A stretch of DNA of 64,000 nucleotides, from contig OZ024745.1 of assembly GCA_964016885.1 (NCBI GenBank), positions 86,428,001 to 86,492,000 of the forward strand. Reading direction: 5' to 3'. This DNA is from Eledone cirrhosa (Eukaryota). Positions 5,888 to 57,464 of the stretch are shown one piece after another. The notes under the pieces are model-generated. The model was not told where the DNA came from and ran no database searches. It saw only the letters and a list, made by a program, of their open reading frames with translations. How positions within the stretch are numbered: position 1 is the stretch's first letter; each line of letters starts with the position of its first letter. The translations under genes and the position numbers were made by a program.

Positions 5888-6230
5888 TTCTAACATTTTT
5901 TTTTTTTATTGACTTATAATTTAAATGAATCAACCTATTTTTTTAAATGGTCCTTATTAACTCCTGAAATTCCAAATTAATAAGATAGGTGGCAGATATG
6001 TCAAAACATATCCATACACATTCTGCTCTTGTACTATTCACAGTTGGAAGGTTCCCTATATTTTTATCCTTCCAGGGTCAATAAAAGTATTACTAATTAC
6101 ATACTGGGATCAGTTCAGTTTGAACCCATGCCCTTCTATCCCCAAAAAAGAAGACAATTGTGGCCCTTGGTTAGAAATCAGTATTGATAAGAAGCATTAC
6201 TAAATACCTGACAATATTTAGTTTTGTTAA

Positions 6231-6428
6231 CCCATTAACATTTAAACCAGTCATATCTGGCCAAAATTCTCTCACCTCTTACTGTTCAAACTGGCTGTTC
6301 ATACTTATGTTAAGGTATTGCTCTCAAAATAAACAATATCAAAATCTCATAGATTTGATATTATGTGAAATAAAGCCTTTACCGTGAAAATACAATAGTG
6401 AATATAGAATAATTTAAATGTTAAAGGG
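6231..6428. mobile_element. Short TTAA-targeting (piggyBac-type) MITE
   Basis: TTAA|CCCATTAACATTTAAA...AAATGTTAAAGGG|TTGA; internal sequence homologous to 9613-9782. Confidence 0.7.
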
Positions 6429-7303
6429 TTGAGAGACAGTAGATTGGAAGAATTGTTAGAGCATTGGACACCATGCTTTACAGCGTTTAGTTATGGCCCT
6501 TTGTGTTCTGAGTGTAAATCTCACTTAGGTCAACTACGCCTCTCAACCTTCTGGGTTTGATAAAATAAAGTACCAGTCAAATACTGCAATTTATTTATTC
6601 AACTTTGCCTTTCCTCTTCCAAGTTTTCTTGACTTCAGTCTAAATTAGAAATCAATATTTAGATTTGTTTTATATTTTTTTATGTTGAGCTCTTGTTGAG
6701 GCCAATGAAATACTTATATACTATGTGCAGGGAGGGTTCAATTATCTATGTCTCTAGACAAAAAGCAGTATAATTATAAGTAAAAACCAGCTGTTAAAAC
6801 ACAATTTATATTACTATTAATGTTTAAGAAATTGATATTACTATTACTATTAATGTTTAAGAAAAAAGGATAATTAGTATTTTTTCTATTATAATAACAA
6901 CAAAATATTTAAAAAAGAAAATGTTAACTTTGTCTGTCTTTCAGAGAAATACATGCATTCTTTAAGCTTGTCCCGACTCTTAATTTACAATTCTACTTAC
7001 TGACCTGTTGTGGTTTAAGTAGGAGAGGAAATATATACATGTTTCAAGTAGAGTTAGCTAATATCAGTTTTGTTATTAAATATATATTGAGAACCCTATA
7101 GCTGTGCTACTACATCTTTTGTGGACTTTCTTTGGCTGTGCACCCTCTCATTGTCTTAGATCTTTTTTTTTTTTTTTTCTAAAACTTCTTAAAATGAGAC
7201 AATATTAATTGTCACAATTGTGAACTAATTACCATCCATGCAAATTAAGATAATTAGGAAATAAAGAGCTTTAGTGAGTTTATTTATTAATTGAAGTTTA
7301 ATT

Positions 7304-7420
<117 letters not shown>

Positions 7421-8155
7421 TATATAATTCAGGTTTTGTCAATTCATTGTTGCTGTATTCACTTCTGCTGTCACAGTTCCACCAGGCTTCAAGAAAATCA
7501 CACTGTATTGGAGGAAACTGGTCCTTGTGAAATTCTAACATTGATCATGGTTAGATAAAGTGTGCATAATCTAAAGCTGATTTGATTATGTGACTAATTT
7601 AGATTGTTTAGACAATATATGTTAGAAGACTAAAATATATTGATTGAATCTGATTATTGCTATGCATATTTTTGTTTTTAAATTGTAAGCTTCAGATTAA
7701 GGCAGTGGCAACAATAATAATGATAATAATACAAATAATTGTAGAGGTAAATTGCATAAAGTATTTTTATAGTTGATGGTTTGACTGAGTCGTTAGGCAC
7801 TGGAGAAACAGTAAAAGATCTCTTGAAATAAAGCTATGCTGTAAAAGTTCCAAAAGCAACAGGATGAAAGATTAATGACCACAGTAACTAGCTAATGAGT
7901 TTAAAATGGGTATTTTGATGCAACTGTCTACCACCGATTTCTTCATGTAAAGAGGATCCAAAGAAAATTGTTTTATCAAATTCCGTAAACAAGTCACAAC
8001 CTCTATGGATGTTTTCCTCCTCATAAATTTTCCTGTCGTTCTTTGTGTTATTGTTGCTACTCCACATTCTAACTGCTATTATTGTTGTTGTAACTTGAGT
8101 CGGGTGCACTGCCTAATTCTGTGGCTTCCTTTTAGTCGCCCATCATGTTGTCTGA

Positions 8156-49148: not shown

Positions 49149-50209
49149 GATATTAAATAAATGGAAACTATATTTATTTCATTATACATATTTCTGGGAT
49201 ACCAAATTAAAATATGGTATGCCTTCATCAGACAAAATACAATATATAAACAGTTTTATAAATAATTTTGACGTACCCTATTAAATGCAACCATTATTTT
49301 TGGAAGCTGTCTGGATAGTGAGATGTTTATAATTATTTTATTAGTTATAGTGTTAAGCACAGTTAGAAAAAGACGGAGAGAAAGAAAAAACGGAGAGAGA
49401 GAAGGAGAAAGAAAGAGAAGGAGAGAGAGAAAAAGAAAACCTGGAGAAATATCGGAGAGAGAGAGAAATGTATGTAGAAAAGAAAGATATAAATAGATAG
49501 AGGAAATAAAAAAGAAAGAAAAATAACTCAGATTTTGGTATATTAACCTCAAGTTTTTAAACTAAACATATGGTCATTATTGAACAATGTTATTTTCTCA
49601 TATTATATATCTATGTCCCATTCATGAATATTGATATTTATATTTTTATTATTCATTTCATATAAATTGTTAACTCAACTTAATATGACATGACGTAAAG
49701 TTGTCGCTATATCCCCCTCTCTCTATATAGTATTTCCTCTCTCTTAAGTTTTTCTATCTGTATGATGAATTATTATATCTCTGTTGCTTTCTTTTGTTTT
49801 TCTTATTTCTTCCTTTTTTTTTCTTTCTTTTTTATTTCCTCCTATCTATTTATATCTTTCTTTTCTACATACATTTCTCTCTCCGATATTTCTCCAGGTT
49901 TTCTTTTTCTCTCTCTCCTTCTCTTTCTTTCTCCTTCTCTCTCTCCGTTTTTTCTTTCTCTCCGTCTTTTTCTAACTGTGCTTAACACTATAACTAATAA
50001 AATAATTATAAACATCTCACTATCCAGACAGCTTCCAAAAATAATGGTTGCATTTAATAGGGTACGTCAAAATTATTTATAAAACTGTTTATATATTGTA
50101 TTTTGTCTGATGAAGGCATATCATATTTTAATTTGGTATAGCTGAAATATGTGTAATGAAATAAATATGGTTTTATAAATATAGTTTCCATTTATTTAAT
50201 ATCGTATAT
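49143..50209. repeat. Inverted duplication (49143-49523 vs 49818-50209), probable Penelope-type pLTR pair with degenerate hammerhead cores
   Basis: ~380-bp arms nearly identical in reverse complement; each has CTGATGA-stem-GAAA (50107-50147 +, 49191-49231 -). Confidence 0.7.
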
Positions 50210-50305: not shown

Positions 50306-50385
<80 letters not shown>

Positions 50386-51097
50386 TACATAAAAGTATGT
50401 ATACGTACATACATATATGTATACAGACGTACAGTAGTATGCATATATATATACATATATACATACATGCACACATATATATATATGTACGTATGGATTC
50501 ACCGAATATTTATTATAATGCTCTGTGTGTTTGTAAACAAACATCCCGAATTAAGCCGTACAGTGTCTAGCAACCATCGTTGCTCATTTGTTCAACACTG
50601 ACAAAGGAACGCTGTACTAGTTTCAAGCTTATTAGGTATCGTCAGCAACGTATACCTTCCTGCCAGATGGTTGAACGTCTGAAAGTATATATTTTCCTTG
50701 TGCATATTAACGGCTGAGCAGCCTAATTTGCATATCAAGTGAGTTAATCGGCCGGGTTACCGAAAACGATAAACGGAAAAAATGAAACGAAATTTCATTT
50801 CTCACTCTTAGTACGGCTGACAAAGGAACGCTGTACTAGTTTCAAGCTTATTAGCTATCATCAGCAACGTATACCTTCCTGCAAGTTGGTTGAACGTATG
50901 AAAGTATATACTTTCCTTATGCATATTAACGGCTAGGCAGCCTAATTTGCAAATCGAGTGAGTTAATCGACCTCAGTACCGAAAACGATAAACGGAAAAA
51001 ATGAAACGAAATTTCATTTCTCACTCTTAGTACGGCTGTTATTTAAATATAAGTATGTATACGTACATACATATATGTATAAAGACGTACAGTAGTA

Positions 51098-51253
<156 letters not shown>

Positions 51254-51676
51254 CATATATACATACATGCACACATATATATATGTACGTATGTATTCAC
51301 CGAACATTTATTATAATGCTCGGTGTGTTTGTAAATAAACATCCCGAAATAAGCCGTACAGTGTCTTGCAACCATCGTTGCTCATTTGTTCAACACTGAC
51401 AAAGGAACGCTGTAATAGTTTCAAGCTTATTAGCTATCGTCAGCAACGTATGCCTTCCTGCAAGTTGGTTGAACGTCTGAAAGTATATACTTTCCTTATG
51501 CATATTAACGGCTAAGCAGCCTAATTTGCAAATCGAGTGAGTTAATCGACCTCAGTACCGAAAACGATAAACGGAAAAAATGAAACGAAATTTCATTTCT
51601 CACTCTTAGTACGGCTGTTATTTAAATATAAGTATGTATACGTACATACATATATGTATAAAGACGTACAGTAGTA

Positions 51677-51712
<36 letters not shown>

Positions 51713-52123
51713 CATGCACACATATATATATGTACGTATGTATTCACCGAACATTAATTATAATACTCGGTGTGTTTGTAAATAAACATCCCGCATTAAG
51801 CCGTACAGTGTCTTGCAACCATCGTTGCTCATTTGTTCAACACTGACAAAGGAACGCTGTAATAGTTTCAAGCTTATTAGCTATCGTCAGCAACGTATAC
51901 CTTCCTGCCAGATGGTTGAACGTCTGAAAGTATATACTTTCCTTATGCATATTTACGGCTGAGCAGCCTAATTTGCATATCGAGTGACTTGATCGGCAGG
52001 GGTAGCGAAATCGATGAACGGAAAAAGTGAAACGAAATTACATTTCTCATTCTTAGTAATGCTGTTATTTAAATATAAGTATGTATACGTACTTACATAT
52101 TTGTATACAGACGTACAATCGTA

Positions 52124-52232
<109 letters not shown>

Positions 52233-54196
52233 TTATATATATACATATATACATACATGCACACATATATATCTCTACGTATGGATTCACCAAACATTTA
52301 TTATAATGCTCGATGTGTTTGTAAACAAACTTGCCAAATTAAGCCGTACAGAGTCTAGCAACCATCGTTGCTCATTTGTTCAACACTGACAAAGGAACGC
52401 TGTACTAGTTTCAAGCTATCGTCAGTAACGTATACCTTATTGCCAGATGGTTGAACGTCTGAAAGTATGTATTTTCTTTATGTATATTAAGGGCTGAGCA
52501 GCCTTATTGGGCATATCGAGTGAGTACATATATATATATGTACGTATGGATTCACCGAACATTTATTATAATGCTCGTTGTGTTTGTAAACAAACATGCC
52601 AAATTAAGCTGTACATTGTCTAGCAACCATCGTTGCTCATTTGTTCAACACTGACAAAGGAACGCTGTACTAGTTTCAAGCTTGTTAGCTATCGTCATCA
52701 ACGTATACCTTCCTGCCAGATAGTTAAACGTCTGAAAGTATGTACTTTCTTTATGCATATTAAGGGCTGAGCAGCCTTATTGGGTATATCGAGTGAGTTA
52801 ATCAGCCGGGGTACCGAAAACGATAAAAGGAAAAAGGAAATGAAATTTGATTTCTCACTCTTAGTACGGCTGTTACTTAAACATGTATACATACATAGAT
52901 ATATGTATACAGACGTACTGTAGTATGCATATATATATATATATATGCATATATATATGTTCCTGTGTCAGTGTTGAACAAAAAGGTGACGTGGTTGCCT
53001 TAACACCGTATGGCATAAATTCAGGCTGTTCAGTTTGTTTACAAACGAACAAAGCGACGTTATAATAAGCGCCGCTAAACTGATACGTGCATATATGTAT
53101 GTGTACCTGTATGCATATGTATGTATATATGTATATATATATATATATGTGCATGCTACTGTACGTCTGTATACATATATGTATGTACGTATACATGCAT
53201 ACTTACATTTAAGTAAGTGCCATACTAAGAGTGAGAAATGAAATTTCGTTTTCATTTTTTTCAATTTATCTTTTTCGGTATGCCTGACCGATTTAACTCA
53301 CTCAATATGCAAATTAGGCTGCTCAGCCGTTAATTTTCATAAGGAAAGTATATACTTTCGAACGTTCAACTATCTGGCAGATGGGTAAACGGTGCTGATG
53401 ATAGCTAACAAGCTTGAAACTAGTACATCGTTCCTGTGTCAGTGTTGAACAAAAAGGTGACGTGGTTGCCTTAACACCGTATGGCATAAATTCAGGCTGT
53501 TCAGTTTGTTTACAAACGAACAAAGCGACGTTATAATAAGCGCCGCTAAACTGATACGTGCATATATGTATGTGTACCTGTATGCATATGTATGTATGTA
53601 TGTATGTATGTATATATATATATATATATGTGCATGCTACTGTACGTCTGTATACATATATGTATGTACGTATACATGCATACTTACATTTAAGTAAGTG
53701 CCATACTAAGAGTGAGAAATGAAATTTCGTTTTCATTTTGTTTCAATTTATATATATATATATATATACATATATACATACATGCACACATATATATATA
53801 TGTACGTCTGGATTCACCGAACATTTATTATAATGCTCGTTGTGTTTGTCAACAAACATGCCAAATTAAGCCGTATTGTGTCTAGCAACCATCGTTGCTC
53901 ATTTGTTCAAAACTGACAAAGGAACTCTGTACTAGTTTCAAGCTTATTAGCTATCGTCAGCAACGTATACCTTCCTGCCAGATGGTTGAACGTATGAACG
54001 TATATACTTTCCTTACGCATATTAACGGCTGAGCAGCCTAATTTGCATATCGAGTGAGTTAATCGGCCGGGATACCGAAAACGATAAACGGTATAAATGA
54101 AACGAAATATCATTTCTCACCCTTAATACGGCTGTAACTTAAATATAAGTATTTATACGTACATACATATATGTATACGGACGTACAGTATTATGC

Positions 54197-54289
<93 letters not shown>

Positions 54290-54704
54290 TACATACATGC
54301 ACACATATATATATGTACGTATGGATTCACCGAACATTTATTATAATGGTCAGTGTGTTTGTAAACAAACATCCCGAATTAAGCCGTACAGTGTCTAGCA
54401 ACCATCGTTGCTCATTTGTTCAACACTGACAAAGGTACGCTGTACTAGTTTCAAGCTTGTTAGCCATCGTAAGCAACGTATACCTTCCTGCCAGATGGTT
54501 GAAAGTCTGAAAGTATATACTTTCCTTATGCATATTAAGGGCTGAGCAGCCTTATTGGGCATATCGAATGAGTTAATTGGCCGAGGTACCGAAAACGATA
54601 AAAGGAAGATGAATGAAATTTGATTTCTCACTCTTAGTACGGCTGTTACTTAAATATAAGTATGTATACATACATACATATATGTATACAGACGTACTGT
54701 AGTA

Positions 54705-54779
<75 letters not shown>

Positions 54780-55196
54780 TTATACATACATGCACACATA
54801 TATATGTACGTATGGATTCACCGAACATTTATTATAATGCTCGGTGTGTTTGTAAACAAACATCCCGAATTAAGCAGTACAGTGTCTAGCAACCATCGTT
54901 GTTCATTTGTACAACACTGACAAAGGAACGCTGTACTAGTTCAGGCTTAATAGCTATCGTCAGCAACGTATACCTTCCTGCCAGATGGTTGAACGTCTGA
55001 AAGTATATACTTTCCTTATGCATATTAACGGCTGAGCAGCCTAATTTGCATGTCGAGTGAGTTAATGGGCCGGGTTACCGAAAACGATAAACGGAGAAAA
55101 TGAAACGAGATTTCATTTCTCACTCTTAGTAAAGCGATTACTTAAATATAAGTATGTATACGTGAATACATATATGTATACAGACGTACTGTAGTA

Positions 55197-55310
<114 letters not shown>

Positions 55311-55673
55311 TACATATATGCACGCATATATATATATATGTACGTCTGGATTCACCGAACATTTATTATAATGCTCGGTGAATCCATACGTACATTTATA
55401 TATGTGTGCATATATCTATATAAGTATATATATATATATATATGCATACTATTGTAAGTCTGTATACATATATGTATGTACGTATACATACTTATATTTA
55501 AGTAACAGCCGTACTAAGAGTGAGAAATGAAATTTCGTTTGATTTTTTCCGTTTATCGTTTTCGGTACCCCGGCCGATTAACTCACTCGATATGCAAATT
55601 AGGCTGCTCAGCCGTTAATATGCATAAGGAAAGTATATACTTTCAGACGTTCAACCAGCTAGCAGTAATGTAT

Positions 55674-55716
55674 ACGTTGCTGACGATAGCTAATAAGCTT
55701 GAAACTAGTACAGCGT
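55674..55716 (+). ncRNA. Type I hammerhead ribozyme, family A (representative intact copy)
   Basis: acgttg-CTGACGA-tagct-aata-agctt-GAAA-cta-GTA-cagcgt: stem I acguug/cagcgu, stem II AGCU/AGCU, palindromic stem III ACUAGU, GUA cleavage triplet. Confidence 0.8.
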
Positions 55717-55872
55717 TCTTTGTCAGTGTTGAACAAATGAGCAACGATGGTTGCTAGACATTGTACGGCTTAATTCGGGATGTTTGTTTACAAACACACC
55801 GAGTATTATAATAAAATTTCGGTGAATCCATACGTATATATATATAAGTGTGCATGTATGTATATATATATG

Positions 55873-55954
<82 letters not shown>

Positions 55955-55964
55955 ATATATATAC

Positions 55965-57464
55965 ATTATGAAGAGAGAAGAAACATTTAGATATAATTAG
56001 TAATAAAATGTATCATACCTAAACTGTTCCTAAATTCCTCGACTACGTAGTTTCGTGGCATAAACAAAAACAATATATCAAAGATATAGAGTCCTTGCGA
56101 GGTCTGCCGACTTATCAAGAGGATACCTCATTTTACTAGTCTCAAGAACGCGTCTACACGACGTGAGAAAGAATCCCAAAAGGCGGAGGGGGAGATAGTC
56201 ACGCGATATAACGGTCGAGAAACAGAGCTAAGCCTCTTATAACCACGAAGAAAATACCACGGAGGCGGAGGGGGTATTCATATCGAGGCCGTAGAAGAGG
56301 TAGTGAAGAAGGCGAGAAGTATGAGTAATGGAAGCTTTCCAGTTGTCCCCACACTTCAAAGATTGCTCGACCAGAGGGAGTTATTAATATATTAAGAAAC
56401 ACACAGATACATGCGGACACACACATATATACATGAATGCATCCGCACCCAACTGTGAGTTAAGGGTGCCAACTTCACCGATGTTGCTCAATGAATGACT
56501 GGGATTCTTTCTCACGTCGTGTAGACGCGTTCTTGAGACTAGTAAAATGAGGTATCCTCTTGATAAGTCGGCAGACCTCGCAAGGACTCTATATCTTTGA
56601 TATATTGTTTTTGTTTATGCCACGAAACTACGTAGTCGAAGAATTTAGGAACAGTTTAGGTATGATACATTTTATTACTAATTATATCTAAATGTTTCTT
56701 CTCTCATCATAATGTATTTTTAACTCTGATACTGGTTCAGTCTGGTTCAAACTGAATTGGTCTGTCCCAGTCATTCAGTGAGCAACATCGGTGAAGTTGG
56801 CACCCTTAACTCACAGTTGGGTGCGGATGTATTCATGTATATATGTGTGTGTCCGCATGTATCTGTGTGTTTCTTAATATATTAATAACTCCCTCTGGTC
56901 GAGCAATCTTTGAAGTGTGGGGACAATTGGAAAGCTTCCATTACTCATACTTCTCGCCTTCTTCACTACCTCTTCTACGGCCTCGATATGAATACCCCTT
57001 CCGCCTCCGTGGTATTTTCTTCGTGGTTATAAGAGGCTTAGCTCTGTTTCTCGACCGTTATATCGCGTGACTATCTCCCCCTCCGCCTTTTGGGATTCTT
57101 TCTCACGTCGTGTAGACGCGTTCTTGAGACTAGTAAAATGAGGTATCCCCTTGATAAGTCGGCAGACCTCGCAAGGACTCTATATCTTTGATATATTGTT
57201 TTTGTTTATGCCACGAAACTACGTAGTCGAGGAATTTAGGAACAGTTTAGGTATGATACATTTTATTACTAATTATATCTAAATGTTTCTTCTCTCTTCA
57301 TAATGTATTTTTAACTCTGATACTGGTTCAGTCTGGTTCAAACTGAATTGGTCTGTCCCAGTTATTCATTGAGCAACATCGGTGAAGTTGGCACCCTTAA
57401 CTCACAGTTGGGTGCGGATGCATTCATGTATATATGTGTGTGTCCGCATGTATCTGGGTGTTTC

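Follow-up and report, generated by a model that had tools for sequence, protein, structure and literature searches.

Non-LTR retrozymes of metazoans are protein-free tandem repeats, typically with units of about 300 bp, each of which carries one type I hammerhead (PMC7229834; this and the other sources are cited from the portions of their text that were available). Retrozymes form circRNAs; Penelope-like elements (PLEs) are the partner proposed for their mobilisation. A 591-bp repeat in the window, the whole 64,000-nucleotide stretch of Eledone cirrhosa DNA analysed here, resembles them in its protein-free tandems, in the single type I hammerhead-like motif of each unit, and in the circRNA intermediate and PLE mobilisation proposed for it. 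It differs from the retrozymes of PMC7229834 in its longer unit, its U3-A8 core, its long stem II and a predicted pseudoknot which takes the place of loop-loop contacts. It also forms head-to-head arms with two fixed ends, an arrangement for which no counterpart was found in the available portions of that source.

The minimal hammerheads of the Schistosoma mansoni PLE Cercyon (PMC4209133), with about 1,300 matches, also combine a U3-A8 core and a PLE context, and share with the motif described here the G10.1-C11.1 pair, a palindromic stem III region and a 5-bp stem I. However, Cercyon hammerheads have a stem II of 7–8 bp and an extra base after A9, and are mostly single, whereas the present motif has a stem II domain of 57 nt and a 10-nt palindrome, and lies in tandem arrays. 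For about 40% of hammerheads, a pseudoknot that joins stem I to stem II has been predicted (Perreault et al. 2011, PMC3088659); here, in contrast, the repeat is eukaryotic and the predicted partner is an internal loop within a stem II that is extended.

PLE insertion has been studied with the Poseidon element of Anolis (PAc; PMC11167929), whose protein starts at two internal sites, one on either side of a tail, and extends both strands from them. The resulting layouts (see also PMC8557442) include inverted, 5'-truncated copies, often with the tail at one end only, and the insertions described below are alike in these respects. The tail is 30–40 bp in Poseidon but 165 bp in the present repeat and 137 bp in a neighbouring PLE, and while no difference in start site from strand to strand was seen in the anole study, the arms here are strictly one long and one short. 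The neighbouring PLE resembles the Hydra clade (PMC8557442) in its DKT motif, its CxCX5C linker, the CxxC and CxH around E and N, its C-terminal nuclease and its (TA)n target. It departs from that clade in its length (about 6.6 kb, against less than 3 kb), in having RWR for RWK, and in its non-canonical hammerhead-like motif.

U3-A8 cores in PLE hammerheads, pseudoknots and non-LTR retrozymes are thus already in print, each ribozyme feature being known singly. A literature search, with subscription journals and supplements mostly outside its coverage, found neither this family nor the strict arm rule nor a retrozyme-PLE chimera described.

The hammerhead-like motif and its predicted fold

Scanned with a descriptor, the window contains the hammerhead-like motif at 56123–56036 on the minus strand and at 56555–56642 and 57146–57233 on the plus strand (Table 1). 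The three copies follow the pattern UUGAUAA...GAAA-CUACGUAG-UC and have in common the UUGAUAA core, a G10.1-C11.1 pair closing stem II, GAAA, the stem III 10-mer ACUACGUAGU and a GUC site. An earlier note on this DNA had described three copies of one motif in a 591-bp repeat, with a 10-nt palindrome as stem III. The period is correct and the 10-mer is a perfect palindrome; all three copies are present, but stem I is perfect in copy 1 only (UCCUC/GAGGA), the other two having private mismatches (GAAGA in copy 2, UCCCC in copy 3).

The core reads U3 U G A U A8 A, with GAAA and GUC. Three helices surround it, with the fold open at stem I, and pairing amounts to 98.8% for stem I, 97.9% for stem II and 100% for stem III; these statistics come from 32 hand-picked copies, the same sequences from which the structure was drawn. 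The sequence supports a type I hammerhead-like fold, for which cleavage is predicted, with U3-A8 as a swap of the 3-8 pair. That U3-A8 is a compensatory variant at this position, as the earlier note proposed, agrees with the natural U3-A8 cores described in PMC3088659 and with those of S. mansoni. The same note had named loss of the pair and the stems in other genomic copies as evidence against the motif, and the reverse is seen: the Watson-Crick 3-8 pair is U3-A8 in 32 of 32 aligned copies, and the stems are at least 97.9% paired. An Rfam search of the window motif gives no match to any hammerhead family. Of 2000 shuffled versions of the unit, with dinucleotide content approximately kept, none gives a type I hammerhead match on either strand.

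Stem II had been taken to be large and branched, with sub-hairpins in its loop. One of these, 'ccucgcaagg', is paired in only 54% of cells across the 32 aligned copies and fails in older subfamilies, whereas a continuation of stem II past an internal loop into a single 15-pair hairpin is 90% paired. Nine pairs of this extension have exchanges of the G-U/A-U style, and the core of the continuous hairpin is predicted independently by RNAalifold. The branched form therefore gives way to a model in which stem II is one long, unbranched hairpin with an internal loop.

The ACCUCR sequence of the internal loop is complementary to UGAGGU in the 5' flank, with 97.9% of cells paired in the 32 copies. 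The outer pair of this helix is U-A in 23, U-G in eight and C-G in one, from a single lineage of change; C at this position marks a subfamily of 177 copies, and among the 100 listed the opposite base is G in 96, A in three and T in one. A rival local hairpin, GAGG/CCUC, is broken in 10 of the 32 copies. The 6-bp pseudoknot in which the stem II internal loop is predicted to pair with the 5' flank probably replaces the usual contact between loop 1 and loop 2. Stem I–stem II pseudoknots are common and are required for fast cleavage (PMC3088659), and the fragment proposed in the earlier note for a cleavage test, 56036–56123, omits the 5' strand of the pseudoknot (56130–56125).

The stem III palindrome has a duplex energy of -12.9 kcal/mol and forms no hairpin within a monomer. 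This energy is in line with the dimer cleavage described for PLE hammerheads (PMC6765202), and neighbouring units may well cleave as dimers through the palindrome. Single-sequence folding prefers misfolds to the catalytic core, and z-scores range from -1.1 to -3.0. Single folds also contain a downstream hairpin that would lock stem I; the alignment backs its inner 10 pairs only, with no double changes, and such a lock after transcription is unproven.

Table 1. Retrozyme, junction and PLE features in the window (unit positions are counted from 56500)
Feature	Positions	Strand	Remarks
Short-ended arm of two-armed insertion	55961..56504	-	unit 266-591 then 1-218, ends in (TA)n at fixed short end
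Hammerhead-like motif, copy 1, intact	56036..56123	-	stem I UCCUC/GAGGA, U3...A8, G10.1-C11.1, palindromic stem III
Predicted cut of copy 1	after C at 56041	-	predicted from sequence
Pseudoknot 3' strand ACCUCG, predicted	56098..56103	-	internal loop of stem II
Pseudoknot 5' strand UGAGGU, predicted	56125..56130	-	shortly 5' of stem I, outside the interval of the earlier note
Long-ended arm	56500..57473	+	full 591-bp unit plus positions 1-383, ends in (TA)n at fixed long end
Hammerhead-like motif, copy 2, with pseudoknot strand	56548..56642	+	stem I mismatch GAAGA
Hammerhead-like motif, copy 3, with pseudoknot strand	57139..57233	+	stem I mismatch UCCCC
165-bp 'tail'	57309..57473	+	between short (218) and long (383) end sites
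Retrozyme fragment, left arm of chimera	59392..59686	-	unit 83-383, long end, without 5' half of ribozyme
5'-to-5' junction	59687..59771	.	short inverted pieces of retrozyme (unit 251-278) and PLE
5'-truncated Hydra-type PLE, right arm of chimeric insertion	59772..64000	+	ORF ends 61607

The retrozyme family and its insertions

In the 3.0-Gb animal assembly to which the window belongs, the 591-bp unit is a dispersed tandem repeat; of 270 candidates 40 were scored, and these gave 181 matches reaching 99%. The exact pattern of the motif's 5' half occurs 5,775 times genome-wide and that of its 3' half 7,966 times, against 0 for controls with the pattern reversed, and the family has about 6,000–8,000 motif copies. 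A8 is present in 99 of the 100 listed 5' halves, and a C3-G8 sister form of the family has no match. Two older subfamilies, about 73–85% identical to the window's unit, were retrieved, the three subfamilies lying about 20–25% apart. Columns that differ among the three make up 3 of 56 in the core, stems and pseudoknot against 92 of 288 elsewhere (Fisher P 1.3e-5; 31 natural copies). One stem I pair is U-A in 20, C-G in nine and U-G in three of the 32 aligned copies, a compensatory change. There are two double changes, at this pair and at a pseudoknot pair, and each arose once; 174 of 500 shuffles reach the same count, and the 3-8 pair does not covary within the family. Support for the fold thus comes from conservation and two covariation events, not from broad covariation.

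Tandems of the 591-bp unit occur genome-wide, each unit with a type I hammerhead-like motif and with stops in all six frames, and their insertions have fixed 3' ends and variable 5' truncation. The unit is a non-LTR retrozyme of the non-autonomous kind, and its insertions lie in (TA)n. An autonomous parent bearing the unit was not found by tblastn of 100 retrozyme loci, which returned only unrelated neighbours, and contigs aligned to the unit contain the tandem joint only. The earlier note had considered the family unrelated to family A, with which it is interleaved; this holds, as the two have no match beyond simple repeats.

In the ribozyme sense, the 3' ends lie at unit positions 217–221 or 375–392 and run into (TA)n. 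Among 98 loci with matches (102 examined, second copies in L078 and L061 being left out), 54 are two-armed; 50 of these pair a short end with a long end, and the other four have an odd end. The same arrangement is seen in 13 of 16 two-armed insertions at fresh loci (38 used of 40 fetched, L237 and L248 being left out). Pooled, 63 of 70 have a short and a long end, and none has two ends of the same type. The older subfamilies use the same two end sites. A rare third end, near unit position 565, occurs at three loci (L091, L136, L153).

Sequence variants were compared between the units of single insertions at 75 young loci, older loci, L078 and L061 being dropped. At the 188 variant sites covered by at least three units, the variant is present in all units at 86, in one unit at 97 and in some units at only five; for sites that span both inverted arms the counts are 56, 72 and three. 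For a variant to be in every unit of one insertion, copying must have passed through a single unit; a circle that is copied again and again, as PMC7229834 proposes, is the simplest such route. The all-or-one pattern suggests that the template was an RNA of one unit, likely a circular one. Insertion-wide haplotypes may also arise by homogenisation after insertion (bioRxiv 10.64898/2026.07.22.740005).

Insertion-wide variants lean towards A>G on the ribozyme strand (33 A>G against 13 T>C, P 6e-6; 15 against 2 for recurrent variants), whereas unit-private variants do not (22 against 22). In the small sample of 40 fresh loci the counts are six against three (P 0.10), and one against one at new sites. 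Some of the sites are mis-polarised, and T>C changes have the same context avoidance. A-to-I editing and reverse-transcriptase bias are both possible sources of the lean, editing being a lead. A>G accounts for seven of the 10 variants common to all units at locus L085 and for four of four at L189.

Several other repeats lie in the window. Family A (50381–59400) has 14 copies of a minimal C3-G8 hammerhead in units of 445–540 bp that contain (TA)n, and by eye its two arms seem to end each at its own fixed site, the two sites lying about 55 nt from one another. A further hammerhead-like motif, with a CUGAUGA core, lies at 50102–50160 inside an inverted repeat (49165–50173), and dispersed SINE-like repeat families, D14–D16, are found at 6442–48108.

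The neighbouring PLE and the chimeric insertion

A 664-codon frame begins by chance inside an antisense piece of the retrozyme, the PLE sequence itself starting at 59772. DKT, the CxCX5C linker and CxxC/CxH in the nuclease are found by eye in an intact 828-aa copy, and the element inserts into (TA)n. By its motifs, compared with the available text of section 11 of PMC8557442, the adjacent ORF fits a Hydra-type PLE. Domain order and motifs speak for the Hydra type rather than for a Naiad. No family is assigned to the ORF by a Pfam search, and a protein search finds relatives at 34–47% identity. The window's ORF lacks six codons in frame (about 61005–61015) that other copies have. The 3' region, about 3.7 kb after the stop, contains degenerate ORF-end repeats and microsatellites (61554–62017, and on to 64000) common to other copies. 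A second abundant PLE family (L288–L317) has about 33% protein identity to the window's, and a motif similar to that at 50102–50160 occurs at loci of this second Hydra-like family, which suggests that the motif at 50102–50160 belongs to a third family.

The adjacent PLE family is young and abundant, and its 3' ends, where found, consist of the PLE's own repeat. In this repeat lies a hammerhead-like motif of another kind, with C3-G8, counted 18 times in loci that overlap in part. At two loci (L262, about 6140–6290, beyond the window end; L033, 4376–4534) stem I of the motif is 10 bp long, the core is C3-G8 and stem III is a 10-nt palindrome; the stem II domain is about 115 nt and closed by a C-A mismatch, and the repeat ends 73 and 210 nt downstream of the predicted cut. 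The rule of one short and one long end holds in eight of eight two-armed PLE copies, four of them predicted before the sequences were retrieved. The tail measures 165 nt in the retrozyme and 137 nt in the PLE. The two have no common sequence beyond simple repeats, and their 3' regions are matched as well in 16 of 300 shuffles.

The sequence from 59392 to about 65361 in window-equivalent numbering, past the window end, reads as one insertion in a family A spacer, with family A continuing in phase to either side of it. The retrozyme arm has the long end; the PLE arm runs on to the short end and (TA)n; and the two are joined 5' to 5' without (TA)n. This junction is unique among 40 scored of 898 candidates, and none of 80 one-armed retrozyme loci has this PLE at its 5' junction. 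The chimera is a single case, known from the assembly alone; contigs of four runs do not bridge the retrozyme-PLE junction, a gap which carries no weight. Within the limits of this one case, the abutting fragment is an arm of a chimeric insertion and evidence for the mobilising partner.

Proposed mechanism and alternatives

The family is best explained, with good though incomplete confidence, as a high-copy non-LTR retrozyme that probably borrows the enzyme of a Hydra-type PLE. The predicted U3-A8 type I hammerhead would cut multimeric transcripts into single units, and these, likely circularised, would be copied back into (TA)n DNA. Probably each of the two nicked target strands primes reverse transcription at its own site, the sites being separated by 165 nt, and copying round the single-unit template would then give the head-to-head tandem arms. 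The adjacent Hydra-type family is, by a narrower preference, the candidate for the mobilising partner. More speculatively, a dimeric Hydra-type enzyme might prime one nicked (TA)n strand at the short site and the other at the long site, and roll round self-cleaved circles. Arrays would then arise in one step, a different RNA could be used on each side, as in the chimera, and A-to-I edits would be written back.

In the earlier note the unit was instead read as possibly the pLTR of the adjacent PLE ORF, because a piece of it abuts that ORF. The piece is real, but it is antisense to the ORF, truncated, and without the 5' half of the motif. The ORF's other copies, 19 in all, lack the unit within 1.5 kb; the terminal repeat of the PLE is its own and carries a different motif; and the junction is unique among those scored. 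The unit is thus not the pLTR of the PLE, a reading that now has next to no probability. It is scarcely more probable that the motif is a chance look-alike in a repeat, with no ribozyme. The lack of an Rfam match and the z-scores would fit a look-alike, but all core positions are present, shuffled units give no type I match, and the core and stems are selectively conserved, with a compensatory change in stem I.

A more serious competitor, though still a doubtful one, is that the retrozyme has a working hammerhead but is mobilised by another PLE family, perhaps that of an unfound parent, and that its join to the Hydra-type element came about incidentally or through misassembly. There are several PLE families, the retrozyme and the adjacent PLE have no common sequence and different tail lengths, and there is one chimera only. 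The junction, however, lacks (TA)n and is built of templated inversions of both partners, the long and short ends and the in-phase family A flanks fit one event, and the second Hydra-like family has no unit upstream in 29 of 30 loci, the thirtieth being the query locus. It is unlikely that the arrays derive from linear multimeric transcripts or from later unequal crossover instead of RNA circles, with the ribozyme weakly active or kept for another step. The authors of bioRxiv 10.64898/2026.07.22.740005 explain local amplification by unequal crossover, anole PLE hammerhead mutants are not impaired in insertion in vitro (PMC11167929), and PLE hammerheads cleave slowly (PMC6765202). The haplotypes, however, span both inverted arms and are rarely shared by only some units, and crossover between direct repeats does not account for haplotypes across inverted arms.

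In the preferred scheme of circles copied by a Hydra-type PLE enzyme, the family bears on two questions left open in the available text of PMC7229834 and of the bioRxiv study: which enzyme mobilises retrozymes, and whether their arrays arise by rolling-circle reverse transcription or by crossover. It offers a candidate for the enzyme, of which intact ORFs exist, along with two start sites placed to the base and a strict rule for the arms. Its combination of features would escape CUGANGA searches, short-stem-II descriptors and Rfam, so counts of retrozymes in invertebrates may be too low.
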